Program-made: the position numbers and the translations under genes | Assembly: GCA_013359225.1 (NCBI GenBank) | Contig: JABWCG010000001.1 | Coordinates: 497,627 to 561,626, forward strand | Reading direction: 5' to 3' | From: Candidatus Buchananbacteria bacterium | GTDB lineage: Bacteria > Patescibacteriota > Patescibacteriia > Buchananbacterales > UBA6539 | Length of the DNA stretch: 64,000 nt | Shown here: piece after piece, positions 1 through 41,688 of the stretch | Position numbering within the stretch: position 1 is the first letter of the stretch | Layout: every line of letters begins with the position of its first letter | The notes under the pieces: generated by a model | Seen by the model: only the letters and a program-made list of their open reading frames with translations | What the model was told of the DNA's origin: nothing | Databases searched by the model: none

Positions 1-2011
1 GCAACACCACCAAATCATTGTCTTCACTGCCTAAAATTGACACATCATACTCATCTCCCTCAATATATTCCTCAATCAAAGCGGGGCTGCCGACATCAAC
101 AATGATTTTTTTTAACTGTTCGCGCAACGCTTCTTTGGTTGTCACGACTGAATCGTTGCTGATACCGATTGAGTTGTCGGTATTCGCCGGCTTGACAATT
201 AAGGGGTAGCGTAAATTTTCATCAATATCGTCATCAATAGTATACGCATAATCCCAGCGCGGGGTTGGAATTTTATGGTATGCTAAAAGCTTTTTAACTC
301 TAATCTTATCAATACACAAACTTAATGTTGAGGGATTTGATCCGGTATATGGAATTTGCAGGATATCGAATAATGAAGCGGCATGAGGTTCAAGCAGACT
401 TGAATTATTAATTCGTTCGCAGACATTAAAAACTAAATCAACATCGCTGGCGCTGAGTTCTTTAAATGCCTTTTCAATATCATTAAAATTGAAAAAAGTT
501 GTTTTGTAGCCGCGCTGCACCAACGCATCTTGGATATTTCGGCCAACAGTCGCCAATTCGTTTTCAACCGCGCCGTCCGACTCATCATAAATGTTGCAGG
601 CAATGCCAATGTGAAGCTTGCGCTTATCTTCAGGAGTAATGCGGCGGAATTTTTCGATTTTTGCAGCATGAATCAAAAGACTTGAGGTCAACGAGGCTTG
701 AGAAAAACTGTTTTTACGCAATGTTTTTCCGATTGAAGACTCTGAAGCAAATCGCGCAACTTCAAACTGCACGCAGCGCAGTGCTTTTTTCAGATTGTCT
801 TGAGCATCCGGCATGCTGTATCCGGAAACGGTAACCCAGCCCAAATATTCGTACCCTTCCGGCGGCACCAAAACTGCGTCTGCTACTTTTTTAAAGAAAT
901 GAACTTCCTCTAAAAATTTGTACTGTTTCAACTCGGCTTTTACTTCCAGCTTTGACAAAATGCCTGAATAATCGGACAAAAAATATGAACCGGCCATATA
1001 CTTCTTTGGCATTTCCGGCCGTTCAATTTTCGGGATATACATCCCCAAGGCAATCTTGACGGCATTCTCAATCAGATCCACCCCCCAGGCACCCTTTACA
1101 AATGAATACACCTCGTCGCCACCCATGCGTAAATTGACTTCAATCGGCACTGGTCCGGTTGGCGTTGATTTCGCCTCAAAATGAATAACGCCGTTTTGAA
1201 CACCAATTTTTTCCAGCACTTCTTCCGCCAGCGAAACCAAATCAGCTTTGATCTTTTCTGATAACCCCGAAGGAATTGACTGGCCAGTCTCAATAAAAAA
1301 CGGCTCTTTAGTTTGGTAGTTGTCAGAAATTGAATGAAATTTAATTTTGCCGTTTTGTAGCACAATATCAATATCTACCTCATCTCCGGCGATATATTCT
1401 TCAGCTAAAATATCAAAACCGTCAGACAATGCCGACTCCACGTGAGTAGACATATTCTTACGAATGTAATCATAGGTGTGAAGCATTTCTTCTTTGTTTT
1501 CAACTTTGACGACATACGCACTGCTCGCACCAAATACCGGCTTAATCACCAATGGGAAACGCAAATCTTCAGGTAAATTATGAATATCGGCGGCCGATTT
1601 GATCAAAATATGTTTTGGCGCCGGCAAACCGGTTTCGCGGCAAAATTCTCGGAACAGGAATTTATTTCGCACCTTGCGCGCCACGGCGTAAGGAATGCCT
1701 ATAAAATTAAACCTGTCGGCAATCCGGGAAGCCAACAAGACATCATCTTCCCAAAAAGTTACAACCCCATCAATTTTTACTTCAGGATGGTCGGCAATGA
1801 AAGCCTTCAAGGCGCCGGCGACTTCGGCATAACTATTTTTTTCGGTTAAAATCCAATGATCAACATACGGCTGAGCCCAGTTTTTTTCTTTATTCAAACA
1901 GACAATTTTTAAACCAAGTTTTTTTAATTTCTGCAAAATAAATCGCTTTTTGATTGAACCGGTGTTCACCAGTAAAATCGTCTTATCTTGAAGCGTGGAA
2001 ATATTTTTCAT
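1..2011 (-). CDS. Tandem ATP-grasp ligase fusion. The N-terminal module is amino-acid-ligase-like and the C-terminal module is D-Ala-D-Ala-ligase-like. The 3' end runs off the window.
   Basis: Absent from the ORF track because there is no stop codon inside the window. Manual minus-strand translation from ATG 2011-2009 (MKNISTLQDKTILLVNTGSIKKRFILQKLKKLGLKIVCL...) stays open to position 1, giving more than 670 aa. Module 1 has ATP-grasp motifs: FPLVIKPVFGASSAYVVKV, EEYIAGDEVDIDIV and HFEAK...PIEVNLRMGGDEV. Module 2 is Ddl-like: VFNVCE...LLEPHAASLFDILQIPYTGSNPSTLSLCIDKIRVKKLL...YPLIVKPANTDNSIGIS...IEEYIEGDEYDVSILG. Confidence 0.6.
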   Translation of the reverse strand, partial: MKNISTLQDKTILLVNTGSIKKRFILQKLKKLGLKIVCLNKEKNWAQPYVDHWILTEKNSYAEVAGALKAFIADHPEVKIDGVVTFWEDDVLLASRIADRFNFIGIPYAVARKVRNKFLFREFCRETGLPAPKHILIKSAADIHNLPEDLRFPLVIKPVFGASSAYVVKVENKEEMLHTYDYIRKNMSTHVESALSDGFDILAEEYIAGDEVDIDIVLQNGKIKFHSISDNYQTKEPFFIETGQSIPSGLSEKIKADLVSLAEEVLEKIGVQNGVIHFEAKSTPTGPVPIEVNLRMGGDEVYSFVKGAWGVDLIENAVKIALGMYIPKIERPEMPKKYMAGSYFLSDYSGILSKLEVKAELKQYKFLEEVHFFKKVADAVLVPPEGYEYLGWVTVSGYSMPDAQDNLKKALRCVQFEVARFASESSIGKTLRKNSFSQASLTSSLLIHAAKIEKFRRITPEDKRKLHIGIACNIYDESDGAVENELATVGRNIQDALVQRGYKTTFFNFNDIEKAFKELSASDVDLVFNVCERINNSSLLEPHAASLFDILQIPYTGSNPSTLSLCIDKIRVKKLLAYHKIPTPRWDYAYTIDDDIDENLRYPLIVKPANTDNSIGISNDSVVTTKEALREQLKKIIVDVGSPALIEEYIEGDEYDVSILGSEDNDLVVL

Positions 2012-2015
2012 ACGA

Positions 2016-3401
2016 TTAAAGCTTTTTTATCTCCTCCTGATAAATATGAATCAATTTTTCTTTAATAAATTCAGGAATAGTGGCCGTCTCATGAATAGTC
2101 AAAAATTTTTCACGCAACTCTGGCTCCCGTTTTTCTGCTTCAACCAAATATTCCTCTTTAAATAAATCAATTAGTGCTCCCCGCGCCCCCCGGCGATATG
2201 CAAACAAAAACGACAGTAACTGTTCATCACGAACTGCTGTCGGTTTTTCATACACCCGTTTAACATTTTTATTAAATAAGGGGTACAAGTCTTTATATTC
2301 TTGCTTAAAGAAATCACGATTGAAACCAATCTGCTCTGCCCGACCGCCGACGGCGACAAGATACAAAAATGCTTTGGCACACATTGGACAGCCATAGCAC
2401 CATTTGTCAGGGTCAGTTTCTTTAGGCGAACACGACATCATGTACTTTAACAGTTTTGGATAACGATTCACCAAAAGTGCCATTTCAACGATGTTATAAA
2501 TTGGTTCAACCAGACTTGCAATCTGAATCTTGCCGGATGTCAAACAATCAAAAAGACGATTTTCTTCTTTAGCGTATAAAATACTCTGATCAAATGACGG
2601 ATAAATCTTATATGAACCGTCCGGATAGTAATCACTAAAATTAGCCTCATTGCCAAATAATAAATATTTGGCGCGATAGTAACAGGCAAACGGCGCCAAC
2701 TCCAGTGCAAATGCCAGCATACCGTTGGTGTTCTCCAAATCTTCAACTTTTCGCGCGAACTTTAGATCAAAAAATATCTCATCAATATTGTCAGTCAGAA
2801 AATCAATTGAAACATTTTCCTCCGCGGTGAAATCAGCTATGATGGCATTCTTGAATTTTTCTTCTGCGCTGTTTAACTCCTCCATTTCTTTAACGTATAC
2901 TAATCGGAAGCTGAGTCCTAATTCCTGAGCCAGACCATACGACAACAAGCTGTCTTTACCAAACGACAAAGCTAAAATCGCTTTGTCGTTTTCAGTAGTA
3001 ACCGCAATTGTCCCGTTGGTTAAATCAGTTTGTTTAAAAATTTCTTTTTCTTCGTTATCCCGATACATGTCTAGTAGCTCAGCAATGCTAACATTACTTA
3101 AATAAGCTAAGCGCGGAATGTCTCCCACAATACCGTAGCTGACCAATTCTTTATTTATCGGTCTAGACAATCGATAAGGCAAAACTTCGTCAGTCTGCAA
3201 TGAAAGCGATTTGGTCCGGCAATAAATAAAATTCTCTGCCAAAACCCGTTTAGCCTTTTGGTCCAAAGTCCGATAGATGGCCAGAGGATATTTAACCGTA
3301 TACCCTCTGCCCAAAATTTCAACACGAAAACCATCTTCATCAATATGATAAGAGATGTCTGTTCCCTCAACTTCAAAACGTTGACCCTGATCAGTTGTCA
3401 T
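2016..3401 (-). CDS. PP-loop ATP pyrophosphatase superfamily protein of unknown specificity (adenine-nucleotide alpha-hydrolase fold).
   Basis: 461-aa ORF with a SFGKDS motif (SGGxDS-type PP-loop) about 140 residues in. A C-terminal Cys cluster reads WCYGCPMCAKAF. Its stop lies 4 nt upstream of the ATP-grasp start. Confidence 0.5.
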   Translation of the reverse strand: MTTDQGQRFEVEGTDISYHIDEDGFRVEILGRGYTVKYPLAIYRTLDQKAKRVLAENFIYCRTKSLSLQTDEVLPYRLSRPINKELVSYGIVGDIPRLAYLSNVSIAELLDMYRDNEEKEIFKQTDLTNGTIAVTTENDKAILALSFGKDSLLSYGLAQELGLSFRLVYVKEMEELNSAEEKFKNAIIADFTAEENVSIDFLTDNIDEIFFDLKFARKVEDLENTNGMLAFALELAPFACYYRAKYLLFGNEANFSDYYPDGSYKIYPSFDQSILYAKEENRLFDCLTSGKIQIASLVEPIYNIVEMALLVNRYPKLLKYMMSCSPKETDPDKWCYGCPMCAKAFLYLVAVGGRAEQIGFNRDFFKQEYKDLYPLFNKNVKRVYEKPTAVRDEQLLSFLFAYRRGARGALIDLFKEEYLVEAEKREPELREKFLTIHETATIPEFIKEKLIHIYQEEIKKL

Positions 3402-3445
3402 GAAAACCTGTACAATCGTTGAAATAAAAAGCTTTTAGTCCTTAA

Positions 3446-3474
3446 ATTATAAGAGTTATTAAAAAATAAAACAA
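3446..3474 (-). promoter_or_regulatory. Candidate sigma-70 promoter for the PP-loop/ATP-grasp operon.
   Basis: On the minus strand, TTGTTT (-35, 3469-3474), a 17-nt spacer and TATAAT (-10, 3446-3451) lie about 45 nt upstream of ATG 3401. Confidence 0.3.
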
Positions 3475-3532
3475 TAGCTTTTGGCCCAAAAATGGCCTGA
3501 CTACCAAATTTAAATATAATAAAAGAGCCATC

Positions 3533-3608
3533 TGCTCTGGGGGTGGGATTCGAACCCACAACCAATGGATTAACAGTCCACTGCTCTACCATTGAGCTAC
3601 CCCAGAGC
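3533..3608 (-). tRNA. tRNA-Asn (anticodon GTT).
   Basis: 76-nt cloverleaf read on the minus strand: GCTCTGGGGTAGCTCAATGGTAGAGC...GGACTGTTAATCC...GGGTTCGAATCCCACCCCCAGAGCA. The anticodon loop CTGTTAA gives GTT. A 10-bp perfect inverted repeat (3522-3531 / 3611-3620) flanks the gene. Confidence 0.85.
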
Positions 3609-3631
3609 ACATGGCTCTTTCTTTAAAATAA

Positions 3632-4864
3632 CTAGTAGTCTTTTAATTTATCAATCAAATGATGCTTTTCAATTTTTTCCAGAGCCTTAGCCTCAATCTG
3701 TCTAATGCGCTCACGAGTAACATCAAACTCCTGACCGACTTCTTCTAATGTATGAGACACTCCGTCTTTCAAGCCAAACCGCATTTCCAAGATTTTCTGC
3801 TCACGCGGCGTCAGGTTCTGGATTACCTCGTTAACATAATCGCGAAGCAGCTGTAATGCCGCCGCCCGATCCGGGGTAACGGTTCGAACATCTTCAATAA
3901 AGTCTTCCAAGGTACTATCCTCATCGTCTTCACCAACCGAAGTCTCAATGGAAATGGTGTCTTGACTTATTTTAATAATATGAAGAACTTTGTCAAGCGT
4001 TTCACCCATTTCAGCGGCAATTTCTTCCGGCAAGGGCTCGCGGCCTAAATCCTGAATCAGCTGGCGTTCAGCCTGCTTAAACTTATTAATTGTTTCAACC
4101 ATATGCACCGGAATGCGGATTGTCCGCGACTGGTCGGCCAAGGCCCGGGTGATTGCCTGTCTGATCCACCATGTGGCATAAGTTGAAAATTTATAGCCGC
4201 GACGGTAGTCAAATTTCTCAACCGCCCGAAACAAACCAATATTGCCCTCTTGGATTAAATCCAATAAGGATAAACTCTTACCGGTAAACCGTTTGGCAAT
4301 TGAAACAACCAACCGCAAGTTGGCTTCAATCAATCGGCGTTTAGCTTCCTTATCGCCACGTTCGGCTTTTTTGGCCAAAGTGATTTCTTCTTCCGGCTTC
4401 AATAGCGGCACTTTTCCGATTTCACGCAAATACATTTGGATTGAATCAGCAGAAATATCGGAAATATCAATCCGCTTTTTCTGCTTGTTATTCAAGCCCA
4501 CCTTAGTTAAAATCTCATTTCGCTTTTCATCACTATCAAGCAGCCCAGTTTCTGATTCAATAATTGTGACGCCCAACTGATCAACTTTATACAAAAAGAA
4601 TTCATACTCGTCCAAATATTCTTCAACTTCCGGAAAAGCATACAATAATTCCGTTTCCGTAATAAACGTTCTGGTTCGACCCTTATTAAGCAGCTTTTCA
4701 ATAAGCTGCTCGTTTGGCCGCGACTTACTTTTACGCACACCCTTAAGGTCAACTTTCTTTTTTGAAACCTTTTCGGCCTTCTTGCCTTTTTTAGCCACCG
4801 GTTTTGCTTTGGCTGCTTTTTTGGCAGCTGGTTTTTTTATTGTCGACTTCTTTTTAGGTGACAT
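3632..4864 (-). CDS. rpoD: RNA polymerase primary sigma factor (sigma-70 family).
   Basis: Region 2 and region 4 motifs are present: [29 protein letters not shown] and [27 protein letters not shown]. The N-terminus is Lys-rich. It sits in the classic dnaG-rpoD arrangement. Confidence 0.9.
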
Positions 4865-6748: not shown

Positions 6749-6770
6749 ACATTAGTATCTCCTGCAGAAC

Positions 6771-6858
6771 GGAAGGGTGACAGAGTGGTCGAATGTGACG
6801 GTCTTGAAAACCGTTGAGGCGCAAAACGTCTCCGTGGGTTCGAATCCCACCCCTTCCG
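6771..6858 (+). tRNA. tRNA-Ser (anticodon TGA).
   Basis: GGAAGGGTGACAGAGTGGTCGAATG...CTTGAAAACCG...long variable arm...GGGTTCGAATCCCACCCCTTCCG. The anticodon loop CTTGAAA gives TGA. The 88-nt length and long variable arm are Ser-type. Direct repeat TCCTGCAGAA flanks both ends. Confidence 0.85.
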
Positions 6859-6944
6859 TCCTGCAGAAGATCTCCAAACACCCGACTGATATCATTCTGT
6901 CGGGTTTTTTGATAAAATTAAATCAGTATTACTCTTACGACTCT

Positions 6945-10904: not shown

Positions 10905-10992
10905 GGAGAGATCGCATAGTGGTCTAGTGCGCACGCTTGGAAAGCGTGTAACCCGCAAGGGTTCGGGGGTTCGAATCCCCCTCTCTCCGCCA
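10905..10992 (+). tRNA. tRNA-Ser (anticodon GGA).
   Basis: GGAGAGATCGCATAGTGGTCTAGTGCGCACGCTTGGAAAGCGTG...long variable arm...GGGGGTTCGAATCCCCCTCTCTCCGCCA. The anticodon loop TTGGAAA gives GGA. CCA appears to be encoded. Confidence 0.85.
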
Positions 10993-29412: not shown

Positions 29413-31158
29413 TTAATTTAATTGGGAAACTCTCATTACTTCGTCCAGCGTTGTTTCAGCTTTCAGCGCTTTAATCAGGCAATCTTGAGTCAGTGTAATA
29501 AAATTCTGGCTCTTTAACATTTTGTTGATTTCAATAGTATTACCGCCGCGGTTAATGGCTTCTCGAACTTCGGGAGTAATTTCTAAAATTTCTGATACGG
29601 CAGTTCGGCCTTGATAACCAAGATTACCACAACTGGCGCAGCCAGCACCTTTATAAAACACCGGCTTGTCAATATCAATTCCTTCTAACCCTTCTAAATA
29701 TTTCTTGGGAATCTGGCTTAACTCACTTTTAACTTTTTTCATCATTAGCTCGGGAACTTTTGTTTCCTGTTTGCAGTTTGGGCACAGCTTTCGCGCCAAT
29801 CGTTGAGCAATAACCACGTTCATGACTGACGACAACAAAAATGGTTCAGCGCCTAAGTCGATTAATCGGGGAATTGCACCAACTGAATTGTTAGTATGCA
29901 GCGTTGAAAGCATTAAGTGTCCGGTTAAGCTCGCATGAATAACTAATTCTGTTGTTTCCTTGTCTCTAATTTCTCCCAACATCACCACATTGGGATCTTG
30001 ACGCAAAATTGCCCGCAAACCAGAAGCGAAGGTATAATTGATTTCCTGATTAATCTGTGACTGGTTAACTCCATCAACATAATACTCAATCGGGTCTTCG
30101 AGCGTCACAATATTTATTCCGTCTTTGTTAATCATGGTCAAGATGGTATATAACGTCGTTGTTTTACCAGAACCAGTCGGACCAGTAAGCAGCAGCAAGC
30201 CGTTTGGTTTTTTAATCGCCTCTTTTATGGTTTCAATATGAATACTATTAAAACCAAGCTGATCTAAAGAAGGAATTTGGGCATTTGAATCCAAAATACG
30301 CAAAACAACTTTTTCGCCTTCAAATAACGGCAAAGTTGAAACACGAAAATCAATATCGCGGCCTTCAATATTCAACCGAATCCGGCCATCCTGAGGTTTT
30401 CGGGTTTCATCCAATTTTAAATTTGCCAACACTTTAATGCGCGCCACAATCGCCGAATGAATATATTTTGGTAAAACCAAAGAAGTTCGCAAGATACCGT
30501 CAATACGGTAGCGGACTTTCGTGTCTTTTGTGGTTGGCTCAATGTGAATGTCTGAAGCCCGGCCATCAATCGCGTGGCGAACAATTACTAAAACCATTTT
30601 AGAAACCGGCGCACTCTTAATAACCTCTTCCATCTCCTTCAAAGATTCCTCCGCGGTCTTTTCAACCACTTGTTGCTGTTCATTAATTCCGGCCAAAGCT
30701 TGTTTTACCTCTTCGCCCAACGCCTGATATTGCCGCAAACCTAAGCGAAAACTGGTTGGTGAAATGATGAAATATCTAATTTTTAATCCAGCCTTCTGAG
30801 CTAAAAATTCAACTGCTTCAATCGCTTTAAAATTTTGAGGGTTCACCAAACCAACTCGCAACTCCGACCCTTCTTTTTCAAAGGGTATCATTTGATAGTT
30901 TTCAGCAACCTCCTTAGGAATCAAATTCAAAACTTTTTTGTCAATCGTTTTATTTTGAAAATCGGCAACTGGCGTATTTAAAATTTTTGATTTGGTCGCC
31001 AACAGCTCTTTGTCGGTAATCAATCGTTCCTCAATAATAAGTTCTTCGGGAGTTTTTCGAACTTCCGAAGATTTTTTAAGCAAATCGTCAGCCGCCTGCC
31101 GAGTCAACAGATTACCGGCGACCAATGCTTCAACAAGTTGGGATTGATTTCTTAACAT
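29413..31158 (-). CDS. pilB: Type IV pilus assembly ATPase (GspE family).
   Basis: Walker A LLLTGPTGSGKTTTLY, a tetracysteine CPNC...CASC and N-terminal T2SE_N domains. Length is 581 aa. Confidence 0.9.
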   Translation of the reverse strand: MLRNQSQLVEALVAGNLLTRQAADDLLKKSSEVRKTPEELIIEERLITDKELLATKSKILNTPVADFQNKTIDKKVLNLIPKEVAENYQMIPFEKEGSELRVGLVNPQNFKAIEAVEFLAQKAGLKIRYFIISPTSFRLGLRQYQALGEEVKQALAGINEQQQVVEKTAEESLKEMEEVIKSAPVSKMVLVIVRHAIDGRASDIHIEPTTKDTKVRYRIDGILRTSLVLPKYIHSAIVARIKVLANLKLDETRKPQDGRIRLNIEGRDIDFRVSTLPLFEGEKVVLRILDSNAQIPSLDQLGFNSIHIETIKEAIKKPNGLLLLTGPTGSGKTTTLYTILTMINKDGINIVTLEDPIEYYVDGVNQSQINQEINYTFASGLRAILRQDPNVVMLGEIRDKETTELVIHASLTGHLMLSTLHTNNSVGAIPRLIDLGAEPFLLSSVMNVVIAQRLARKLCPNCKQETKVPELMMKKVKSELSQIPKKYLEGLEGIDIDKPVFYKGAGCASCGNLGYQGRTAVSEILEITPEVREAINRGGNTIEINKMLKSQNFITLTQDCLIKALKAETTLDEVMRVSQLN

Positions 31159-33359: not shown

Positions 33360-34544
33360 TTATTCAATATCGCGCATTGCTAAACCAATGGCAACTGAAA
33401 ATCGTGGGCCAATTTCATCAAGCACCGGCTTTAATTCTTCCGGATAAATTACCCGTGCCCACGGATCACCCAAAAACACTCTCAGGCCCAAGGAGCTGGA
33501 CAGGTATTCGGGCAAATTAAGCAACAATGACGACCCGCCGGTCAAAACTATTTTTTCAATATTTTTTTGTCCTTGGTTTTTATACAGATTCAAACTATAC
33601 CTGAGCTCATCAATAATCGGCGTTAAGGTTTGTTCAATCGTTTTAGGAACGCTTCCCTGTCCCTTACGATCCGGACTCATGCCAATATCATATTTAAACT
33701 GTTCCGCCCGGCTCAAGCTGACATTTAAACTGTTTGCAATCGCTTTGGTAATCGTCAAACCGCCAACATCAATACTGCGATTCAAAATTGGAATACTATT
33801 AACCACAACTGAAATGTTAGTTACCACCGAACCAATGTCAACCACCATCAGGGCCGATTTATCGTTTCCAACCAACGACCTGATTAAAGCAAATGATTCC
33901 GTATCAAGGCTTAATAAATTCAAACCACTGCCCTTAAAAATATCAATGTAGCGCTTCACCAAATCTTTAGGCGCCGCTGTCAAAAGTATTTTAGTGTATT
34001 TTTTCGGGGTCGTGCTTTTAATTTTCAAAAAACCCTTAGTTCGCAATTCACCAACAGAATCGAGATTATCAGAACCATTACCGTTTTGATTTTTAGCGTC
34101 AGTGACCTGATCACCGTCGAAATCTTCCAAAATTTTCCAGTCTAAAATCATTTCCTCGATTGGTAACGGAATGACCTTTTTTGCCTCCCACTTAACCGCC
34201 GTAGCCAAATCTTTTTTTGCCATCCCTGGCAGATTCAAAATTGAAGAAAAAACCGAATAGGCCGGCAACGAAGTCACCGCTTTTGTTGTCGTCACCTGAG
34301 CCTGAGAATACACCTGTTTAATCAGTTTTGAAGTTTCATTCTTCGAATCGCCGCCTTCCTTGTTCTCGGACTTGTCAATTTCCCGATCAATAAACCCATA
34401 GGTAACCAGGCGTGGACGGCCACCTTCATTTTTTAGTTCTACTATTTTGATGCTGTTCGTATCTACATCAACACCTAAATAACTTTGTGAAGAAGAAAAT
34501 AATCCCATAGTTACGTTTATCTGGAAAATGTTTCTGATCGCCAA
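33360..34544 (-). CDS. pilM: Type IV pilus assembly ATPase-fold protein PilM.
   Basis: Actin-like fold segments LGVDVDTNSIKIVEL and VVDIGSVVTNISVV. Alternative start ATG 34508 would avoid overlap with the upstream gene. Confidence 0.75.
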   Translation of the reverse strand: MAIRNIFQINVTMGLFSSSQSYLGVDVDTNSIKIVELKNEGGRPRLVTYGFIDREIDKSENKEGGDSKNETSKLIKQVYSQAQVTTTKAVTSLPAYSVFSSILNLPGMAKKDLATAVKWEAKKVIPLPIEEMILDWKILEDFDGDQVTDAKNQNGNGSDNLDSVGELRTKGFLKIKSTTPKKYTKILLTAAPKDLVKRYIDIFKGSGLNLLSLDTESFALIRSLVGNDKSALMVVDIGSVVTNISVVVNSIPILNRSIDVGGLTITKAIANSLNVSLSRAEQFKYDIGMSPDRKGQGSVPKTIEQTLTPIIDELRYSLNLYKNQGQKNIEKIVLTGGSSLLLNLPEYLSSSLGLRVFLGDPWARVIYPEELKPVLDEIGPRFSVAIGLAMRDIE

Positions 34545-36979
34545 ATCGGTAAACTCTGAGCAAAATCCGCCATTCCCGGAGGCGTATTCGCCAACAGTCG
34601 ACCGTCATAAATAATAATTTCAGAGCCCTTAAAGGTCGCCTCTTGATCACCGAGCGGGAATTCTCGTTCAAGGAAAAACTTCCTGGCCATCATTAATCCG
34701 GAAACCGTCAAACGATTCTGACAGGCGGTTGAATTATAGCAACTGTGGATTTCACCACATCCCGGTACTGATACTCCCTCTTCCTGACTGCAGCTATTCT
34801 GACCGTCACCAATAACGATAAAGTTTCCAGCCAGCTCACTAACCCCTGGCGCAATGTATAAATCACCCCGAACGATCCACGCTACGGAAGCTAAATTGCG
34901 AAATCTTGTTAAGGCATCCGAATCGTCATAACTGCTATTGGCATTAATGGTAAGGTCACCATTAACAATAATTGTGCCGGCCGCATTAACAAAATTGGTG
35001 CTATTTAAAAACTCAACAAAATTATTAATAGTCAAATCTCCGTCACGATAATAAATCTTTCCGTCCATCGGCTGAGTAATGTCGCTTTGACTGTTAATTT
35101 TTACCACTGTACGCCCAATCTCGTTGACGCAAGTATTCCCTGAAGTCGGCACACAAATCAAGCTGTCTAAATCAAGTTTGCCTAAAATATTTGAATACCT
35201 GGTTTCTGGCGTTGGGAAGTTAATCGGACCAAAATAGGGGCTGACAACATCCTGGCCACGAGCTGATCTGAAATTGACAATACCGCCGCCGGACAAAATT
35301 CGATACGTAGCGTTGTAGCTTGGCGAACCACTGCCGGTTAAGCCTTCTTTGGCATAAATATCCCCATATTTCGTTTGTAGCCATGGCGGAACAGTAAAAC
35401 CGTTAGAACCAAATTCAATCCAACCAAGTCCCCGGAGAGTGCCGGCGCCATCCAAAAATGAATTCCAGGCAAACCCACCCAAACCAAAACGCTGCTCAAT
35501 AAAACAGCTATCTCCTGTTGGACAGTCGCTATCGGCCTGGCAGGCCACGGCTGTTTGTCCTTGGGAAACAACATTACTGACGTCGTAATATACCGTTACT
35601 TCTACCGAATCAACCTCTGCGCCGCTTGGAACCCAATCGTCACCCCTAATTCGATATGCAACACCAAAATTTGAATTGTTAACGTCTTGCGGGGTCAAAT
35701 TAGTTCCCCAAGTATTGCCGGCCCCGCCGTAGGTTACAAAATCAAGCGCACCATTAGGCAGATTGTCGCCAACCGCCTGATTTGTTCCGGCAACCACCTG
35801 GCCATTAACTACTAAACTGACATCATAATCTTTGACAAACGTTCCCGCAGGAGCAGCATTATAGATAATTTCTAAATACGGATCCTGCCCAGTCCCCGCC
35901 TGTTCTGAAGTGTATATCCCAACGTCGGACACTCCGAAACCACCACTAGGTTGCACACCCGATATATCGTGGCCTTCGCGTAGCCCAAGCTTGGTATAAC
36001 CAGTTTTATTAATCCACGAAATGCCGGTGGTGTTAAACGGCAAAGAAAAAACCGGATTGGTTCCAATATCTGTACCAAATACTCTGCTACTTCCTTCAAC
36101 CGGACTATTAATGGCGCCACACAAACCAAAATCAGCAGCGCCCAAGCTACTAACCGACGACTGGGTTGATTGTACAACCGTGACAAAGCCCCATTCGTCA
36201 GGATATAAAAAGTTAACGGCTGAATTTAACACCAGCGCCGCTGAATTAATTGTCGCGTCGTCAGGCAAGGCTGAGGTGTCAAACGGGAAAAACGCCCGAT
36301 ACAAAAACCTATTGCTATTAAAAGGTGATTCGCCGCCGCCAGTATAGGCGTAAGCACCAGTATGATCAGACGAAGTGCCGGCAGTCGCAGTCCGAACCGT
36401 TTCCCAGGTGGTTGTATCAGTACCGGAATAAACAACGTAACCGTCACCCGCCAACGCGTTAATGTCCACCACAACGGCCAAAACTTTCTGACCAAATAAA
36501 GTTTTAACATGATCCAGAAGCGTTAGCTTGGTTTGAGCCACAAAGGCTTCAGGTGTGGTGGTGGCTGTTTCAATCTGATACCAGTCGCGGCCATTTTTCT
36601 CAAACGCCGGTGCGGTATAAAACTTAGTGATGTATTCCTCCTCTTTCTTACCATTATCAGCTTCTTGGATTCCCTTAAGAAAAGTCTGGGAATTGCTAGT
36701 TCGCTTGGTAATATCTTCCGTCAAGCCTTTGTAGACTTCCTGCGGCACCTTAACCTCTGAAACGTAATTATAGACTACAACCGAATCAGTGTCGGCTGCA
36801 TCAATAATTCCGTATGCTAAAATTTTTTCCTTAGGTGATTTCAAAATCTCATTTTCGCTCAAACCTCGCTGCTGATCGTAGTGCTGCCAAAGAGTTATGC
36901 CGATTATAAGCAACAGCGCTACTATTACTAGGCTGATGATAATGATAATTTTTTTTCCAAGGCTAATCGACATAGTCAA
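34517..36979 (-). CDS. Large (820 aa) membrane-anchored extracellular protein that is T4P-associated; candidate adhesin.
   Basis: N-terminal TM and no catalytic motifs. It shares GW-type motifs (LGWIEFGSNGF) with the adjacent 319-aa protein. Confidence 0.5.
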   Translation of the reverse strand: MTMSISLGKKIIIIISLVIVALLLIIGITLWQHYDQQRGLSENEILKSPKEKILAYGIIDAADTDSVVVYNYVSEVKVPQEVYKGLTEDITKRTSNSQTFLKGIQEADNGKKEEEYITKFYTAPAFEKNGRDWYQIETATTTPEAFVAQTKLTLLDHVKTLFGQKVLAVVVDINALAGDGYVVYSGTDTTTWETVRTATAGTSSDHTGAYAYTGGGESPFNSNRFLYRAFFPFDTSALPDDATINSAALVLNSAVNFLYPDEWGFVTVVQSTQSSVSSLGAADFGLCGAINSPVEGSSRVFGTDIGTNPVFSLPFNTTGISWINKTGYTKLGLREGHDISGVQPSGGFGVSDVGIYTSEQAGTGQDPYLEIIYNAAPAGTFVKDYDVSLVVNGQVVAGTNQAVGDNLPNGALDFVTYGGAGNTWGTNLTPQDVNNSNFGVAYRIRGDDWVPSGAEVDSVEVTVYYDVSNVVSQGQTAVACQADSDCPTGDSCFIEQRFGLGGFAWNSFLDGAGTLRGLGWIEFGSNGFTVPPWLQTKYGDIYAKEGLTGSGSPSYNATYRILSGGGIVNFRSARGQDVVSPYFGPINFPTPETRYSNILGKLDLDSLICVPTSGNTCVNEIGRTVVKINSQSDITQPMDGKIYYRDGDLTINNFVEFLNSTNFVNAAGTIIVNGDLTINANSSYDDSDALTRFRNLASVAWIVRGDLYIAPGVSELAGNFIVIGDGQNSCSQEEGVSVPGCGEIHSCYNSTACQNRLTVSGLMMARKFFLEREFPLGDQEATFKGSEIIIYDGRLLANTPPGMADFAQSLPIWRSETFSR

Positions 36980-37983: not shown

Positions 37984-40900
37984 TTATTTAGTGCCCTTTA
38001 ACTCATCTAGCTGGACTTGCAGTTTCACAATCTGTTCTTGCTGTTCTTTGATAGCATTTAACATAGCGTAAATAATTGAATTCTGATTTAGCCCGAGATA
38101 CCCCTTGTCGTCGTACGAAACCGCTTCGGGAATTATTGGCTCAACGTCCTGAGCAATCAAACCAACCTGCTGTTTAGTTGAAAGGTTATACGGGTTACCA
38201 GCCTTGAAACTAAAGACCACCGGATTTAAAGCTAACACTTCATCAAGACCATACTGGTATCGGCCGGCAATATTTTTCAACCGAGCGTCTGATTTCGGAT
38301 CAGTACCTTCGCAGATACCCGAAATATTACAGGTTTCGTCAGTGGCACAAGTACCGCAAGTACCACCACAACCATTATCACCACATTCTTTGCCGGAACA
38401 ATTTGGTGTACAGGCTGAAACAATACCGCCAGACCAGCTGGTTTTACATTCGCCGTTAGCAAAACAAAGTTTATCAACGTACACACCACGACCGCCCGTA
38501 AAGTACCCTGAGTATCCCGTGGAATTGGTAACTGATCCCTGGACACCAATACCGTTAGGCGTAGCCGAAAAACCAAAGACACCAACACCATAACCGCCGG
38601 TACCACCGACGTTTTGAGCCAAGGAGCCCCAGACTGAGTCTCCCACGCCAGCTACGCTATCTTGAGTATTATTAGTACCGACCACCGCTTCAGTGCTCTG
38701 CCCAGAAATCGCTGTACGTAATCGAACAGCTGCATGAGTAGCAGTGCCAATACCAACACTACCATCTTTATCAATTTCCATTCTAACCTGTGGCGGCACC
38801 GCGCCAGTCGCGCCGGTTCGCGGTTGAGTAAAGAATCTAATTTTACTGCCGCCGCTAGAAGAATTAGTATAGCGCCCAGACACAAAATCAACCACGCCAT
38901 AATTGGCATCACTAGTATTCCAATAAGTGTTAACCAATAAACCGTCATATTCACCAGAATTAGGATAAGTCTTTTCACCAGCATTAGCACCGCTGTAAAT
39001 ATGAAGTTCGGCGTTAGGGGTAGCGGTATGGATACCGACATTGCCAACGTTCGCATTATAGATATTGTTACCCGAAGTTACCCAGGTAGGCTTATTGAAC
39101 AAAATGGCGTTAATGATCATCTGAACATCTACCGCATTAACACTGCCGTCACGATTAAGATCAGACCTTGAACGGTAAATTGTGGTACAGCTGGCAACAC
39201 CAAGCGTACAATTAACCACGATTGTTTGATCTGCCTCATCTACCTTACCGTCAGCATTAACATCATAACCTAAACCGCCCGGAGTTGAACTGCCACCGGC
39301 AGCACCAATACAATTGCCACTGCCGTCACAGATTGTTCCGTTTGCTTTAATGTTGCCGGCTACGTGTAATTTGTTCCCTGAGGTATTAGTTGGCACTATA
39401 CCAAGACCAACATTGCCGTTCGTTGATATTAAGAAGAAATTCTGCCAACCAGCTTGGGCCGTAGTCAAGTTATCTTGGCGATAAATTCTAAACAACTTAT
39501 TGTAATTTGAGCTACTTGGGTAATAATAGTTATCCATCACCCAAACGTCTGAAGTCAGCGGATTACTTGGACCATTACCTAAAGTCATGCGAGCTCCATC
39601 AAGACCACTGGCTAATATCTGCCCATCAACATGAAGATCAGACACCGGGTTAGTTACGCCAATACCGGTATTGCCATTAGGATTGATATTAAAGGCCTCA
39701 ACATGAGAACCATTTGCCGCCCCGGTGTAATAGTTAATCCGAAACGCATTATCAAGCGTGACACCAGCATCATCCTTACCACTTCGGTGCCAAATGCCCC
39801 AATATTGATTACCAGTACCCCAACCGATACCGTTATCCCACAAACGAATACCGGAATAAGCGTATGGCGGACGATTGGCATAGGTAGTGCCGCTATAGGT
39901 GTCAAGCGCATTGCCGTTCACCGCATTAATAGTTAATCCGTTATTACCGCTATCCATGACCGTACCGTCATTCCAGTTTCCGCCGGAAGTGTTAATTCCG
40001 ATTCGACCGTCATTTTTAATAACAAGTGGAGTTTTTCTGCCGGTATTCGCATTAGCCCCAGCTGCCGCGTCAGGTACCACGCTAAACATCCAGTCTCCCC
40101 ATTCTTTCATTTCAATTGTTCCCGAAGGGCCGCGTCTGGTTTTTTTCATCGTATCAGTTGCCGCGTCATAATATTCATTCACCCGAAAACCGCCACCAAA
40201 AATAGCACCATAACTAGAACGATTGGAATTGTTAAGTTCTGCCACGGTTGATGGAAACGCAAGGCTTTCGTTATAATAGGCTTCAATTTCCGCCTGGCCG
40301 CCACCCGTTGTCGGGTTTGATCTAAAGAAAGTAGTGCCGGCCACATCAAGTCGCGCTTGAGGGTTGGTTACACCGATACCCACAAAACCAAACTTATTGT
40401 TGTCAGCGGTGTTAATCCAAATACCCTGCCCGCCCGGATAGGTTGGGTTGGCGACAACTAAAGCAAATTTCTCATTGATATCTGAAAAACGGCTGTTCGG
40501 ACCAACATTACCGACAATACCCGAAGCATTTTGTCCCAATAACTCAATACGAGAAATTTTATCCGGACCTTCGTCAATTAATATCTGCGGCACGCCCGAA
40601 CTTCTAAATGGCCTGGTAGCCGACATTGCTGCCGGTAGCCCTGCGCTTTGCAGCTGGGCAACAGTCAGGCCGCACTGGGTAATCCCGGCGGAAGTTAGAC
40701 AAAGGTCGGTGTGAGCGTCAATCGTACCGCGGGCGCTTAGCCTGTTTAAAGCAATTTCACCGTTGGTAATAGCAAACGTATTACTGTCAGACAGGGTCGT
40801 TAATGCCTTGTCTTGAGAGAGTTTAATACCAATTGAATCAGCTCCTGTTACATTCATTCGTCCTAAATATGTCGCTGAACCAGCACCGGTACCGGGAACA

Positions 40901-41688
40901 AACACTCCACCCTCACCAATACAATTGCCAGTGCCGTCACAAATTGTTCCCGAAGCTGTAATATTGCCCGTAACGCTCAATGGCTGATTGGCAACAATTT
41001 GATCTCGCTTTAAGGTCAATACCGCCTGGTCATTACCGCTCGACAAATAATTCAAGTTATTTACAAACACCAACTGGTCGTTGGTATCATCACCCCACTT
41101 AACAATCAATTGATCACCATCGCCGCTTCCAGTACCGCCCTGAGCCACCGTGCCTTCAGCAAAAGACGGATATACTTCAAACCAGTCATTCAAAAAATGA
41201 AACTGCGTTTTGCCGCTGTTATAAACGCGCAAACCAAGATCGTTAGGATCGTCACCACCGTCGTTATAAATCCAACCGCGGCTGTCCTGGCTCCAAAAAC
41301 TGCCACCACCAGTAACACCATCCCAAGAGCTAACACAGCTTGCCGCATCATAAGGCGGTAAACATACCTGGGGAGTTTTGATCGCACCCTGACCGATAAT
41401 TACTTCATTAGAAGTGCCTTCCGCGACAATGACCTGGCTTTCAACCTTAGCCGGACCGGTAATATTAATTTGGGCATTTTGCCGCTGGCTGGAGCTGTTA
41501 AAAATAAACCCGGGAGGGTTACCTTCCGGTGGGTTACCCGGAGGCCCTTGGTATTGAGCCAAAACCACCGCACTGGTAACAAAAAAAGTGACAGCAAACA
41601 CCGTCACCATTACGACCACTGAACTAAACTTTGTTGTTAGTTTAACTTGGTTTTTCATAAATTTACCCACGATTCTCGTTACAAACAC
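37984..41688 (-). CDS. Giant (1234 aa) surface fibre protein with a C-terminal phage tail-fibre-type intramolecular chaperone (peptidase S74) domain and dockerin-like Ca-binding repeats.
   Basis: The N-terminus has a TM anchor. GTICDG(T/S)GNCIG occurs twice. Dockerin/EF-hand-like pairs are DVNADGKVDEAD and DLNRDGSVNAVD. A Cys-rich knot precedes SDARLKNIAGRYQYGLDEVLALNPVVFSFK...VGLIAQDVEPIIPEAV...YLGLNQNSIIYAMLNAIKEQQEQIVKLQ, which matches the S74 autoproteolytic chaperone consensus. Confidence 0.75.
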   Translation of the reverse strand: MFVTRIVGKFMKNQVKLTTKFSSVVVMVTVFAVTFFVTSAVVLAQYQGPPGNPPEGNPPGFIFNSSSQRQNAQINITGPAKVESQVIVAEGTSNEVIIGQGAIKTPQVCLPPYDAASCVSSWDGVTGGGSFWSQDSRGWIYNDGGDDPNDLGLRVYNSGKTQFHFLNDWFEVYPSFAEGTVAQGGTGSGDGDQLIVKWGDDTNDQLVFVNNLNYLSSGNDQAVLTLKRDQIVANQPLSVTGNITASGTICDGTGNCIGEGGVFVPGTGAGSATYLGRMNVTGADSIGIKLSQDKALTTLSDSNTFAITNGEIALNRLSARGTIDAHTDLCLTSAGITQCGLTVAQLQSAGLPAAMSATRPFRSSGVPQILIDEGPDKISRIELLGQNASGIVGNVGPNSRFSDINEKFALVVANPTYPGGQGIWINTADNNKFGFVGIGVTNPQARLDVAGTTFFRSNPTTGGGQAEIEAYYNESLAFPSTVAELNNSNRSSYGAIFGGGFRVNEYYDAATDTMKKTRRGPSGTIEMKEWGDWMFSVVPDAAAGANANTGRKTPLVIKNDGRIGINTSGGNWNDGTVMDSGNNGLTINAVNGNALDTYSGTTYANRPPYAYSGIRLWDNGIGWGTGNQYWGIWHRSGKDDAGVTLDNAFRINYYTGAANGSHVEAFNINPNGNTGIGVTNPVSDLHVDGQILASGLDGARMTLGNGPSNPLTSDVWVMDNYYYPSSSNYNKLFRIYRQDNLTTAQAGWQNFFLISTNGNVGLGIVPTNTSGNKLHVAGNIKANGTICDGSGNCIGAAGGSSTPGGLGYDVNADGKVDEADQTIVVNCTLGVASCTTIYRSRSDLNRDGSVNAVDVQMIINAILFNKPTWVTSGNNIYNANVGNVGIHTATPNAELHIYSGANAGEKTYPNSGEYDGLLVNTYWNTSDANYGVVDFVSGRYTNSSSGGSKIRFFTQPRTGATGAVPPQVRMEIDKDGSVGIGTATHAAVRLRTAISGQSTEAVVGTNNTQDSVAGVGDSVWGSLAQNVGGTGGYGVGVFGFSATPNGIGVQGSVTNSTGYSGYFTGGRGVYVDKLCFANGECKTSWSGGIVSACTPNCSGKECGDNGCGGTCGTCATDETCNISGICEGTDPKSDARLKNIAGRYQYGLDEVLALNPVVFSFKAGNPYNLSTKQQVGLIAQDVEPIIPEAVSYDDKGYLGLNQNSIIYAMLNAIKEQQEQIVKLQVQLDELKGTK

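Follow-up and report, generated by a model that had tools for sequence, protein, structure and literature searches.

The window analyzed here is a stretch of 64,000 nucleotides from a contig of Candidatus Buchananbacteria, a tiny-celled bacterium of the Patescibacteria (CPR), and its first 3401 positions contain two adjacent genes on the minus strand. The first (2016..3401) encodes a 461-aa PP-loop ATP pyrophosphatase with a predicted QueC fold and distant homology to MurL, as judged from its open reading frame (ORF), alignment, AF2 modelling and Foldseek. The second, a fusion gene that starts with an ATG at 2009-2011 and runs off the window edge, encodes two successive ATP-grasp modules. Between the PP-loop stop codon (TAA, 2016-2018) and this ATG lies a 4-nt spacer (tcgt, 2012..2015), as an earlier note on this DNA had pointed out, and the tight junction that it described makes translational coupling of the two genes likely. 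Of the 12 relatives that have this gene order, most show a gap of approximately 2-6 nt; in one of them (L003), it is approximately 35 nt.

Upstream of the pair, on the same strand, an AT-rich intergenic region (3402..3533) probably contains the operon's own promoter; this comes from a consensus scan, which is not evidence of function. A terminator-like hairpin (3524-3538), also from a consensus scan, occurs just after a tRNA-Asn (GTT) gene (3534..3606; Rfam 77.4 bits, ARAGORN), which separates rpoD from the operon. All of these features are on the minus strand. A 70-aa ORF at 3398-3610 is spurious, because the DNA there is the tRNA-Asn gene.

The fusion gene is missing from the ORF track, which leaves out ORFs that run off the end of the source. 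The earlier note had nonetheless proposed a continuous gene here, of more than 670 codons, and had named a stop codon in the frame as a possible refutation. When window positions 1-2011 are re-translated on the minus strand, all 670 codons read through without a stop. The product is identical at every one of the 670 residues (100%) to the first 83% of P0124, an 807-aa database entry from Candidatus Buchananbacteria that is named "ATP-grasp domain-containing protein" and is encoded on a 601,517-bp contig. The remaining five frames over the same interval have 25-62 stops each, with a longest open run of 92 codons, and, given the base composition of the window, a run of 670 codons would stay free of stops by chance with a probability of approximately 1.2e-19. 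Among CPR classes the fusion is very well conserved, at 60% identity or more. Matches to Pfam and Ddl models bear out the claim that a single polypeptide carries two ATP-grasp modules, one resembling L-amino-acid ligases (Lals) and then one resembling Ddl. They are predicted to be separate folded units joined by a disordered linker (residues 421-465, 617..751, minus strand) that is flexible by AF2 pLDDT, with values of 31-37 over residues 421-449 and a pTM of 0.55 for the whole protein.

Module 1 (residues 10-420; 752..1984, minus strand) is a clear Lal relative, both by sequence and by fold. It matches ATP-grasp_4 (2.5e-28, 99 bits), ATP-grasp_3 and LAL_C2 (3.7e-10, 40.4 bits against a cut-off of 29.4), and residues 23-403 match the Lal BL00235 (PDB 3vot) with an E-value of 2.7e-29. 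The predicted fold superimposes on Lal with a TM score of 0.85-0.88 and an rmsd of 2.9-3.7 A. An ATP-grasp core, a LAL_C2 region and full-length similarity to characterised Lals are thus all present, and the predicted activity is dipeptide formation from unprotected L-amino acids.

Module 2 (residues 466-670 of 807; 2..616, minus strand) is cut by the window edge, and its Ddl-like character was established from translation, Ddl models and comparison with DdlB. In the full-length protein, residues 490-790 match Ddl models across profile positions 27-302 of 305, with scores under the curated thresholds (PRK01372, 180.8 bits, cut-off 243; TIGR01205, 140.7 bits, cut-off 245.65). In a MAFFT alignment with E. 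coli DdlB, the ATP/Mg and catalytic residues are retained (K97, K144, K215, R255, E270 and N272, with D257 conservatively replaced by E; DdlB numbering). The substrate pocket differs at H63E, S150N, Y216F, G276S, S281D and L282C, so that of the D-Ala-binding residues H63, S150, Y216, S281 and L282 are all replaced and only E15 is kept, assignments that depend on the alignment. The second-substrate pocket thus appears to be remodelled through the changes of Ser281 to Asp, Leu282 to Cys and Tyr216 to Phe. In Ddl, Glu15 contacts D-Ala1 at its free amino group; retention of this residue in module 2 suits a donor that is a free amino acid more than one that is a peptide, which weighs against the ligate-epimerise-ligate reading set out below.

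The PP-loop ORF, its SFGKDS motif and its CxxCxxC-like cluster, all reported in the earlier note, are real. The motif (residues 146-151; 2949..2966) is the predicted ATP pyrophosphate-binding loop, and the cluster, C324-x10-C335-x2-C338-x2-C341 (2379..2432), is a predicted structural zinc site of the QueC/QatC type. The family alignment comprises 29 sequences at 37-72% identity, and G148, K149, S151 and all four cysteines are 100% conserved in 95 non-identical homologues. The AF2 model (pLDDT 91.9) predicts a QueC/QatC fold with high confidence: the top Foldseek matches are QatC (E 3.5e-5), Cap9 and QueC (3bl5/2pg3, probability 1.0, TM 0.64-0.72 over QueC). SFGKDS sits after strand 137-144, and the features of a QueC-like PP-loop pyrophosphatase are found, namely SxGxDS following the first strand of a Rossmann-like core, the fold itself and a four-cysteine site, the metal site being predicted. 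The motif corresponds to the PP-loop of QatC, which is at residues 156-161; the QatC zinc site (C332/C352/C355/C358) is conserved in QueC (PMC13376578). By hhalign, the Cys4 cluster falls on the CxxCxxC region of E. coli QueC, at an overall probability of 1%. The window protein has no match to Pfam QueC (PF06508) even at an E-value of 5, and no que genes are nearby. Members of a sister subfamily do reach the Pfam QueC threshold (25.6 bits) and carry a C-terminal DUF6395-like region.

The nearest characterised sequence relative of the PP-loop protein appears to be the peptide epimerase MurL, although the relationship is distant. The NCBIfam model NF041275 (MurL) is matched by 28 of the 29 family members (best E 1.8e-9), and it is the only NCBIfam family matched across the family. 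The window protein itself scores 10.6 bits (E 0.14) over model positions 121-173 only, but relatives are collinear with the 447-position model over positions 110-445 (L044, residues 99-439, E 2.6e-10), 119-443 (L061) and 118-422 (L041), so that in relatives the homology extends over nearly the whole model and not just the nucleotide-binding loop. Scores are 10-40 bits overall, with 29-39 bits for the best members, against an equivalog cut-off of 700. Since the similarity is this weak, function cannot be transferred with confidence.

These assignments change the picture given by the earlier note in several respects. It had judged neither protein assignable to a characterised family; however, module 1 is a clear Lal relative, and the PP-loop protein has a predicted QueC/QatC fold with MurL as its nearest relative. 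Clear orthology of both genes to housekeeping enzymes, which it had named as a refutation, is not borne out, given the subthreshold scores for Ddl (180.8 bits against 243) and MurL and the lack of a Pfam QueC match. The two ligases hold among its three carboxylate-activating ligase domains, but the third is instead a probable carboxylate-adenylating epimerase. Of the pathways that it suggested, a route to a small peptide or pseudopeptide fits best as a general description, and a modified-nucleoside route has no support.

Of 78 informative loci from Patescibacteria, DPANN, Bathyarchaeia and Asgard archaea, 68 have an ATP-grasp ligase gene adjoining the MurL-like one, in arrangements that vary among these groups. 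No Mur ligase adjoins the MurL-like gene in any locus with annotated neighbours; ATP-grasp ligases are present there instead. In 12 genome loci, the Lal-Ddl fusion is immediately 3' of the MurL-like gene. In the closest syntenic relative (L163), the gene order is dnaG, rpoD, an intervening gene, MurL-like, fusion, ATP-grasp and decarboxylase, and the window operon most likely continues beyond the window edge with a third ATP-grasp and a pyridoxal phosphate (PLP) decarboxylase as well. The L163 decarboxylase is LysA/FslC/DokD-like and most similar to LysA, with 169.1 bits against TIGR01048 (cut-off 297.9). Some clusters also contain enolase-superfamily dipeptide-epimerase-like genes, which point to chemistry at the C-terminal stereocentres of peptides, and in Bathyarchaeia the clusters further include genes of the Amidohydro_3, gamma-glutamyl-cyclotransferase-like, class-I GATase-like and MR/MLE types. 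On metagenome contigs, a MurL-like gene is missing from the surrounding 7 kb for approximately half of the fusion genes; the fusion is therefore not strictly dependent on it, a point against the reading preferred below. No account of this operon was found in the searchable literature.

Because the pairing of MurL-like and double-ligase genes recurs in several archaeal lineages, the system probably makes a small peptide without ribosomes. The reading that we tentatively prefer is that a conserved, ribosome-independent peptide-assembly operon begins with the two genes at window positions 1-3401 and that its enzymes ligate, epimerise and ligate again, yielding a short peptide with a D-residue. 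The first gene product, a PP-loop enzyme with a predicted QueC fold and Zn(Cys4) site, would adenylate a carboxylate with release of PPi, and the second would be a pair of tethered ATP-grasp ligases, each making an amide bond via an acyl-phosphate. The Lal module would join two L-amino acids; the MurL-like enzyme would then adenylate the new C-terminal carboxylate and turn that residue from L to D; and the Ddl-like module, from a family that activates D-configured carboxylates, would add the next amine. By synteny with the closest relative, the third ATP-grasp could extend the product and the LysA/FslC-like PLP decarboxylase could trim it to an amine terminus.

The main rival to the epimerase reading, unlikely though a serious competitor, retains the peptide but has the PP-loop enzyme adenylate a carboxylate, either on the peptide or on one of its building blocks, and transfer it to ammonia or an amine. 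The product would then be amidated at its C-terminus or on a side chain, or a fourth ligation would take place, by chemistry of the kind known from QueC, QatC, Cap9, asparagine-synthetase-type and DdaH-type enzymes. The nearest solved structures, those of QatC, Cap9 and QueC, belong to amide-forming enzymes rather than epimerases, which counts against the epimerase reading, and in the usual chemistry of PP-loop enzymes a carboxyl or keto oxygen is AMPylated before a nitrogen nucleophile attacks (PMC13376578). Amidation is also favoured by the MurL scores, far under the orthologue threshold, and by the enolase-superfamily genes, since a second epimerase looks redundant in clusters that already have a dipeptide epimerase of that type. 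However, MurL is the sole characterised family consistently matched by sequence, over nearly the whole length; PADLOC gives no QatC or Cap9 match; and neither a glutaminase nor an amidotransferase partner occurs in the CPR cassette.

It is improbable that the operon has a housekeeping role, in which it would supply D-Ala-D-Ala and/or D-Glu precursors of peptidoglycan to a racemase-lacking CPR cell, with the fusion as the cell's Ddl. The strong conservation of the fusion across CPR classes would fit such a role, as would the fact that MurL is itself a peptidoglycan enzyme. Module 2 is also the sole Ddl relative in the 64-kb window, but this window is only approximately 10% of the genome, so the lack of a second ddl there means little. 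The subthreshold Ddl scores and the replaced D-Ala2-binding residues (S281D, L282C, Y216F, S150N) argue against it, and mur genes are not adjacent. Moreover, the MurL-like and Ddl-like pairing is also found in DPANN, Bathyarchaeia and Asgard archaea, none of which is known as a murein maker; the stem-peptide role raised in the earlier note is accordingly unlikely as a general function.

More improbable still is the salvage or conversion of scavenged D-amino-acid peptides, for example from host cell walls, with epimerase-like enzymes correcting stereocentres and the decarboxylase converting DAP to lysine. CPR and DPANN organisms rely on hosts for building blocks, and the additional Bathyarchaeial genes and the LysA-like decarboxylase would suit such a function. 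However, each cluster has two to four ligase modules that consume ATP, which indicates a biosynthetic rather than a catabolic pathway, MurL chemistry proceeds from L to D only, and the CPR cassette contains no peptidase or uptake transporter. The chance is remote that the fusion, with its two different ligase domains in one chain, is an iterative polymerase that follows cyanophycin-synthetase-like logic to a poly-amino-acid of alternating residues instead of a short peptide of defined make-up: module 2 does match cyanophycin synthetase models (52-53 bits) and PDB 7lgm (E 4e-4), but these scores are weak and far under the cut-off of 850, neither an M domain of the Mur-ligase type nor a primer-binding N domain is found, and module 1 is a typical dipeptide-forming Lal. 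A part for the PP-loop protein in anti-phage defence of the QatABCD or type IV CBASS (Cap9) kind can practically be set aside despite its top structural matches to QatC and Cap9, given that PADLOC detected none of six cluster proteins (the window PP-loop and fusion proteins, the L163 third ligase and decarboxylase, and two other MurL-like members), that QatA, QatB, QatD and CD-NTase neighbours are absent from all loci examined, and that the PP-loop gene is conserved and syntenic beside dnaG-rpoD.

The components of the preferred ligate-epimerise-ligate pathway each resemble known systems. Module 1 matches the Lals BL00235, BacD/YwfE, RizA and TabS in full-length sequence and fold, including LAL_C2, but is fused to a second ligase and lies outside known antibiotic clusters. 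Module 2 aligns along the whole Ddl profile and shares the ATP/Mg and catalytic residues of the DdlB/VanA family, but falls under curated thresholds, has lost the D-Ala2-positioning residues and the omega-loop Tyr, and forms the C-terminal half of a fusion. Like GshF and the large subunit of carbamoyl-phosphate synthetase (CPS), the fusion places two successive ATP-dependent carboxylate-activating modules in one polypeptide, and CPS large subunits are among the structural matches to its model. The second module of GshF is a Ddl-like ATP-grasp, but its first is a GshA-type ligase rather than a Lal. Homology of the fusion to these enzymes is seen within the ATP-grasp fold; its linker is predicted to be flexible, and a tunnel is not evident. 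The PP-loop protein has the same predicted fold as QueC, QatC and Cap9, with its PP-loop at about residue 150, a predicted C-x(n)-CxxCxxC zinc site at about 325-340 and helices in the C-terminal region, and it shares with QatC an overall size of about 430-460 aa; however, identity is 13-16%, and its neighbours are peptide ligases rather than queuosine or defence genes.

For the pathway as a whole, there are two precedents. In an engineered cascade, the Lal TabS and a Thermotoga dipeptide epimerase produce L-Cys-D-Val (PMC13338154). There too a Lal makes an L,L-dipeptide whose C-terminal residue is then inverted, but the system is man-made and its epimerase is a reversible enolase-superfamily enzyme rather than an ATP-driven PP-loop enzyme. 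The other is the alternative MurD2/MurL peptidoglycan pathway of Xanthomonas oryzae (XOO_1320/XOO_1319; Feng et al. 2017, reviewed in PMC5808125, PMC8788868). No ATP-driven peptide L-to-D epimerase other than MurL is known. MurL is a distant homologue of the PP-loop protein, with a similar length (447 model positions and 461 aa) and a collinear match; it requires ATP and Mg, releases AMP and operates in one direction only (PMC5808125, PMC8788868). In that pathway, once a ligase has added an L-amino acid, a dedicated enzyme that consumes ATP and releases AMP flips the configuration of this new C-terminal residue before another ligase takes over. The hosts of the MurL-like genes described here are instead Patescibacteria and archaea, the UDP-MurNAc context is absent, and the epimerase activity is a prediction. 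The same ligase-epimerase-ligase logic as that of MurD2, MurL and MurE may nevertheless apply, with ATP-grasp parts, a Lal and a Ddl-like module, replacing the Mur ligases.

The 461-residue PP-loop protein is encoded at 2016-3401 on the minus strand, and its reading frame ends four nucleotides before the ATG of a second gene. Translation of the PP-loop ORF yields the SFGKDS motif (nt 2949-2966, minus strand) and a cysteine cluster of the form C-x10-CxxCxxC (nt 2379-2432, minus strand), in agreement with the earlier note. The deposited copy of this protein, P0001, is annotated as a "hypothetical protein". The second gene, which the earlier note had read as a long minus-strand gene leaving the window, extends from the ATG at 2009-2011 to the window edge as 670 codons without a stop; each of the five remaining frames there is interrupted by 25-62 stops, and at the observed base composition (42% G+C) the chance of such a run is about 1e-19. 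It is absent from the ORF list only because ORFs running off the end of the sequence are not included. The translation is identical over 670/670 residues to P0124, a deposited protein of 807 residues. P0124 is encoded on a contig of 601,517 bp (Candidatus Buchananbacteria; locus tag HUU49_02645 lies on it), and 83% of the gene is therefore inside the window, with 137 codons beyond its edge.

Upstream of the PP-loop gene are a spacer of about 120 nt, a terminator-like hairpin (3524-3538) that follows tRNA-Asn(GTT) (3534-3606, minus strand), and, further out, rpoD and dnaG. Consensus scans suggest that the PP-loop gene and the fusion gene probably start their own transcription unit. A 70-aa ORF at 3398-3610 on the minus strand, between rpoD and the PP-loop gene, is rejected as spurious because the underlying DNA encodes the tRNA-Asn(GTT). 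The RpoD-like primary sigma factor (3632-4864, minus strand; regions 1.1-4) has a Lys- and Ala-rich N-terminal extension of roughly 50 residues. Two further tRNAs on the plus strand overlap listed starts: tRNA-Ser(TGA) at 6770-6861 covers that of a 901-aa P-type ATPase ORF (GTG 6777), and tRNA-Ser(GGA) at 10905-10992 that of a 183-aa ORF (GTG 10927), so the true starts of both proteins must lie further downstream. Elsewhere in the window, three very large ORFs lie on the minus strand. One (37984-41688) encodes a 1234-aa protein that combines a dockerin domain with a Peptidase_S74 (endosialidase chaperone) domain at its C-terminus; the other two (60565-63984 and 34517-36979) encode proteins of 1139 and 820 aa lacking any Pfam match. 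ATPases of the T2SSE (29413-31158) and TraG-like (53763-55655) kinds are encoded nearby.

The fusion does contain two ATP-grasp modules in one chain, as first proposed from the sequence. Module 1 (residues 10-420) matches ATP-grasp_4, ATP-grasp_3 and LAL_C2, the last specific to L-amino-acid ligases (Lal). Its nearest solved protein is the Bacillus licheniformis Lal BL00235 (E 2.7e-29, residues 23-403); BacD and RizA come next. When the AlphaFold model of the fusion (mean pLDDT 77.8) is superposed on BL00235, the TM-score is 0.85-0.88. The linker at residues 421-449 is predicted to be disordered (pLDDT 31-37; whole-protein pTM 0.55). Module 2 (residues 490-790) matches D-Ala-D-Ala ligase (Ddl) models across almost the entire profile, scoring 180.8 bits where the cut-off is 243, and its nearest structures are Ddl enzymes (E 8e-20 and weaker). 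Aligned with E. coli DdlB, it retains the ATP/Mg and catalytic residues K97, K144, K215, R255, E270 and N272, with D257 replaced by Glu, and differs at the substrate-positioning residues (H63E, S150N, Y216F, G276S, S281D and L282C). This pattern predicts that module 2 is an active ligase whose second-site substrate is not D-Ala. We take the new Asp in the pocket as a hint of a basic partner, and the retained Glu15 suggests a free amino-acid donor. A second Ddl-like gene was not found in the 64-kb window, a result that says nothing about the whole genome. Conservation of the fusion is striking: the 120 best matches listed, from Parcubacteria, Gracilibacteria and Peregrinibacteria, are all about 800 residues long and at least 60% identical. 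Such proteins are currently annotated as "ATP-grasp domain-containing protein" or mislabelled "D-alanine-D-alanine ligase".

The PP-loop protein has no Pfam match, and among its 120 best matches listed all homologues are unnamed or "hypothetical" and come from Patescibacteria (CPR) and DPANN archaea. When 1.84 billion representative proteins are searched by profile, 868 relatives have an E-value no higher than 1e-3, and 153 no higher than 1e-30; by this measure the family is small but real. In 95 non-identical homologues, drawn from 160 loci, G148, K149, S151, Y314, F414 and four cysteines are invariant, and E252, Q272, R313 and E393 are conserved in at least 96%. In several relatives, the model for the peptide epimerase MurL (NCBIfam NF041275) is collinear over nearly its entire length, for example residues 99-439 against positions 110-445 of 447. 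Scores in the family are 10-40 bits, where the cut-off is 700, and indicate distant homology to MurL rather than orthology.

To our knowledge, no enzyme other than MurL spends ATP on the one-way inversion of a peptide residue. MurL requires ATP and Mg, releases AMP and converts a C-terminal L-Glu to D-Glu unidirectionally; those who discovered it proposed that the alpha-carboxylate is adenylated, and described it as a protein that "lacks known conserved domains" (PMC5808125, PMC8788868). The AlphaFold model of the PP-loop protein (pLDDT 91.9) has QatC, Cap9 and QueC as its top solved neighbours. Its PP-loop lies near residue 150, compared with 156-161 in QatC, and its four cysteines near residues 325-340, compared with the QatC zinc site C332/C352/C355/C358, which is common to QueC (PMC13376578). 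PP-loop enzymes transfer AMP to a carboxyl or keto oxygen, with release of PPi (PMC13376578). Members of a sister subfamily pass the Pfam QueC threshold across the whole QueC profile and also bear a C-terminal DUF6395-like region. The family profile has no match among PDB sequences at E up to 10, and hhalign against E. coli QueC alone gives a probability of 1%, with the cysteine motif nonetheless aligned to the CxxCxxC region of QueC. The analysis shows that MurL-like proteins are members of the QueC/QatC PP-loop fold; no paper joining MurL to this fold was found in the literature searched.

Relatives of the window suggest what lies beyond position 1. The closest syntenic relative, L163, carries dnaG, rpoD, one ORF, a PP-loop gene (72% identical to that of the window), the fusion, an ATP-grasp gene (445 aa) and a PLP decarboxylase gene (439 aa), the product of which is nearest LysA (169 bits, under the cut-off of 298), FslC and DokD. 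The same four-gene order occurs in L002, L003, L009, L024 and L083, and we therefore infer that the window operon likewise continues with the ATP-grasp and decarboxylase genes. Six CPR loci, L007 (13110-14972) and L004 (13160-15034) among them, have an additional gene between the third ATP-grasp gene and the decarboxylase gene, which encodes a conserved 600-630-residue protein with no family match.

Across 80 loci encoding PP-loop protein relatives, taken from one genome per species, an ATP-grasp ligase gene directly adjoins the PP-loop gene in 68 of the 78 that are informative, in arrangements that vary by lineage. In Patescibacteria the Lal-Ddl fusion directly follows the PP-loop gene in 12 loci and is 2-5 kb away in three more. 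DPANN loci have two to four stand-alone Ddl-like genes upstream, and after the PP-loop gene a further ATP-grasp gene, a LysA-like decarboxylase gene and a lysine-2,3-aminomutase-like radical SAM gene. Bathyarchaeia and Asgard loci have one Ddl-like gene after the PP-loop gene and a ThrC-like PLP enzyme, to which Bathyarchaeia add gamma-glutamyl-cyclotransferase-like, Amidohydro_3, MR/MLE and GATase-like genes. The persistence of this linkage across domains, despite such changes in arrangement, speaks for a functional unit. It also shows a tie between a sister family of MurL and ATP-grasp peptide ligases in bacteria as well as archaea. In metagenome loci with adequate flanks, a MurL-like gene lies within 7 kb of the fusion in about 30 of about 62, and the dependence of the fusion on it is therefore frequent, not absolute. 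Titles on some Patescibacteria- or DPANN-like contigs are implausible ("uncultured Gammaproteobacteria", "uncultured Methanosarcinales") and unfit for taxonomy.

Many CPR loci encode a second MurL-like paralogue (L085 5327-6679, L089 3378-4724 and L021 6569-7960, among others), 24-27% identical to the window protein, in which the PP-loop reads S/TFGKES (Asp to Glu). It usually adjoins an enolase-superfamily gene nearest to L-Ala-D/L-Glu epimerase. The neighbourhood of L044, from the subfamily closest to MurL, contains no Mur ligase and no informative gene. At L041 (10343-10936, plus strand) and 28 other Bathyarchaeia or Asgard loci, the Ddl-like gene is directly followed by one for a conserved protein of about 200 residues, which has no Pfam or NCBIfam match and an EGKGVGSSLF motif that looks like a GNAT acetyl-CoA loop. 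In Candidatus Jorgensenbacteria (L005 9544-11871, plus strand), a 775-aa GARS/PurD-like ATP-grasp gene after the MurL-like gene is apparently split by a LAGLIDADG-type intein.

The components of the proposed pathway are two intact ATP-grasp modules and one intact, predicted PP-loop adenylating enzyme, whose genes are tightly coupled and linked across lineages; the order of steps is the inferred part. The Lal module would couple two L-amino acids, the MurL-like enzyme would adenylate the new C-terminal carboxylate and then invert that residue, and the Ddl-like module, of a family that activates D-configured carboxylates, would extend the peptide, which the off-window ligase and decarboxylase would finish. 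We hold this overall reading at slightly short of an even proposition. Its weak points are the low similarity to MurL, nearest structures that, judged from the model, are those of amide-forming enzymes, an enolase-type epimerase already present in some clusters, and the Glu15 retained in module 2. Amidation or ligation by the PP-loop enzyme, in place of epimerization, is the chief, less probable alternative, and the cassette would even then be an undescribed NRPS-independent pathway. What probability remains is divided among peptidoglycan supply, salvage, polymer synthesis and phage defence. The archaeal distribution, the Ddl scores below threshold and the altered D-Ala pocket all speak against a housekeeping Ddl or peptidoglycan role. 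A defence-system reading of the PP-loop protein is rejected because PADLOC returned no match for six proteins of these clusters; Qat and CBASS partners are also absent from the neighbourhoods examined.

Every domain belongs to a known superfamily, and therefore nothing here is categorically new. What appears undescribed is a conserved pairing, present in CPR bacteria and as far afield as Asgard archaea, in which ATP-grasp ligases of the Lal and Ddl-like types accompany a MurL-related enzyme with the QueC fold; no paper linking MurL-like or QueC-like proteins to ATP-grasp ligases in CPR, DPANN or archaea was found in a search that extended to literature outside subscription journals. MurL-type inversion may be more than a peculiarity of peptidoglycan synthesis in a few Proteobacteria and Actinobacteria. 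Tentatively, it could be central to a ligase-epimerase module, ancient and widely exchanged, with which Patescibacteria, DPANN, Bathyarchaeia and Asgard archaea would make small D-amino-acid peptides without racemases, ribosomes or NRPS. Such a module may consist of a Ddl-like or Lal ATP-grasp enzyme and a QueC-fold adenylating enzyme, and in ultra-small symbionts what it makes could be a conserved metabolite on which their lifestyle depends. As far as we know, archaeal D-amino-acid peptide biosynthesis is essentially uncharted. If the chemistry is true, minimal-genome organisms, archaea included, would have a concrete route to D-residue peptides, a very conserved 807-aa CPR protein would gain a role, and compact ligase and epimerase parts would be available, of a type now engineered for peptide drugs (PMC13338154). 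With the epimerase activity predicted, D-residue peptide synthesis in minimal-genome organisms is a well-defined hypothesis.

The proposed order of ligase, epimerase and ligase mirrors that of MurD2, MurL and MurE. The presence of two ligase modules in one chain recalls GshF, in which both modules work in succession within a single polypeptide. The logic of the proposed pathway also resembles that of an engineered cascade combining a Lal with an epimerase (PMC13338154).
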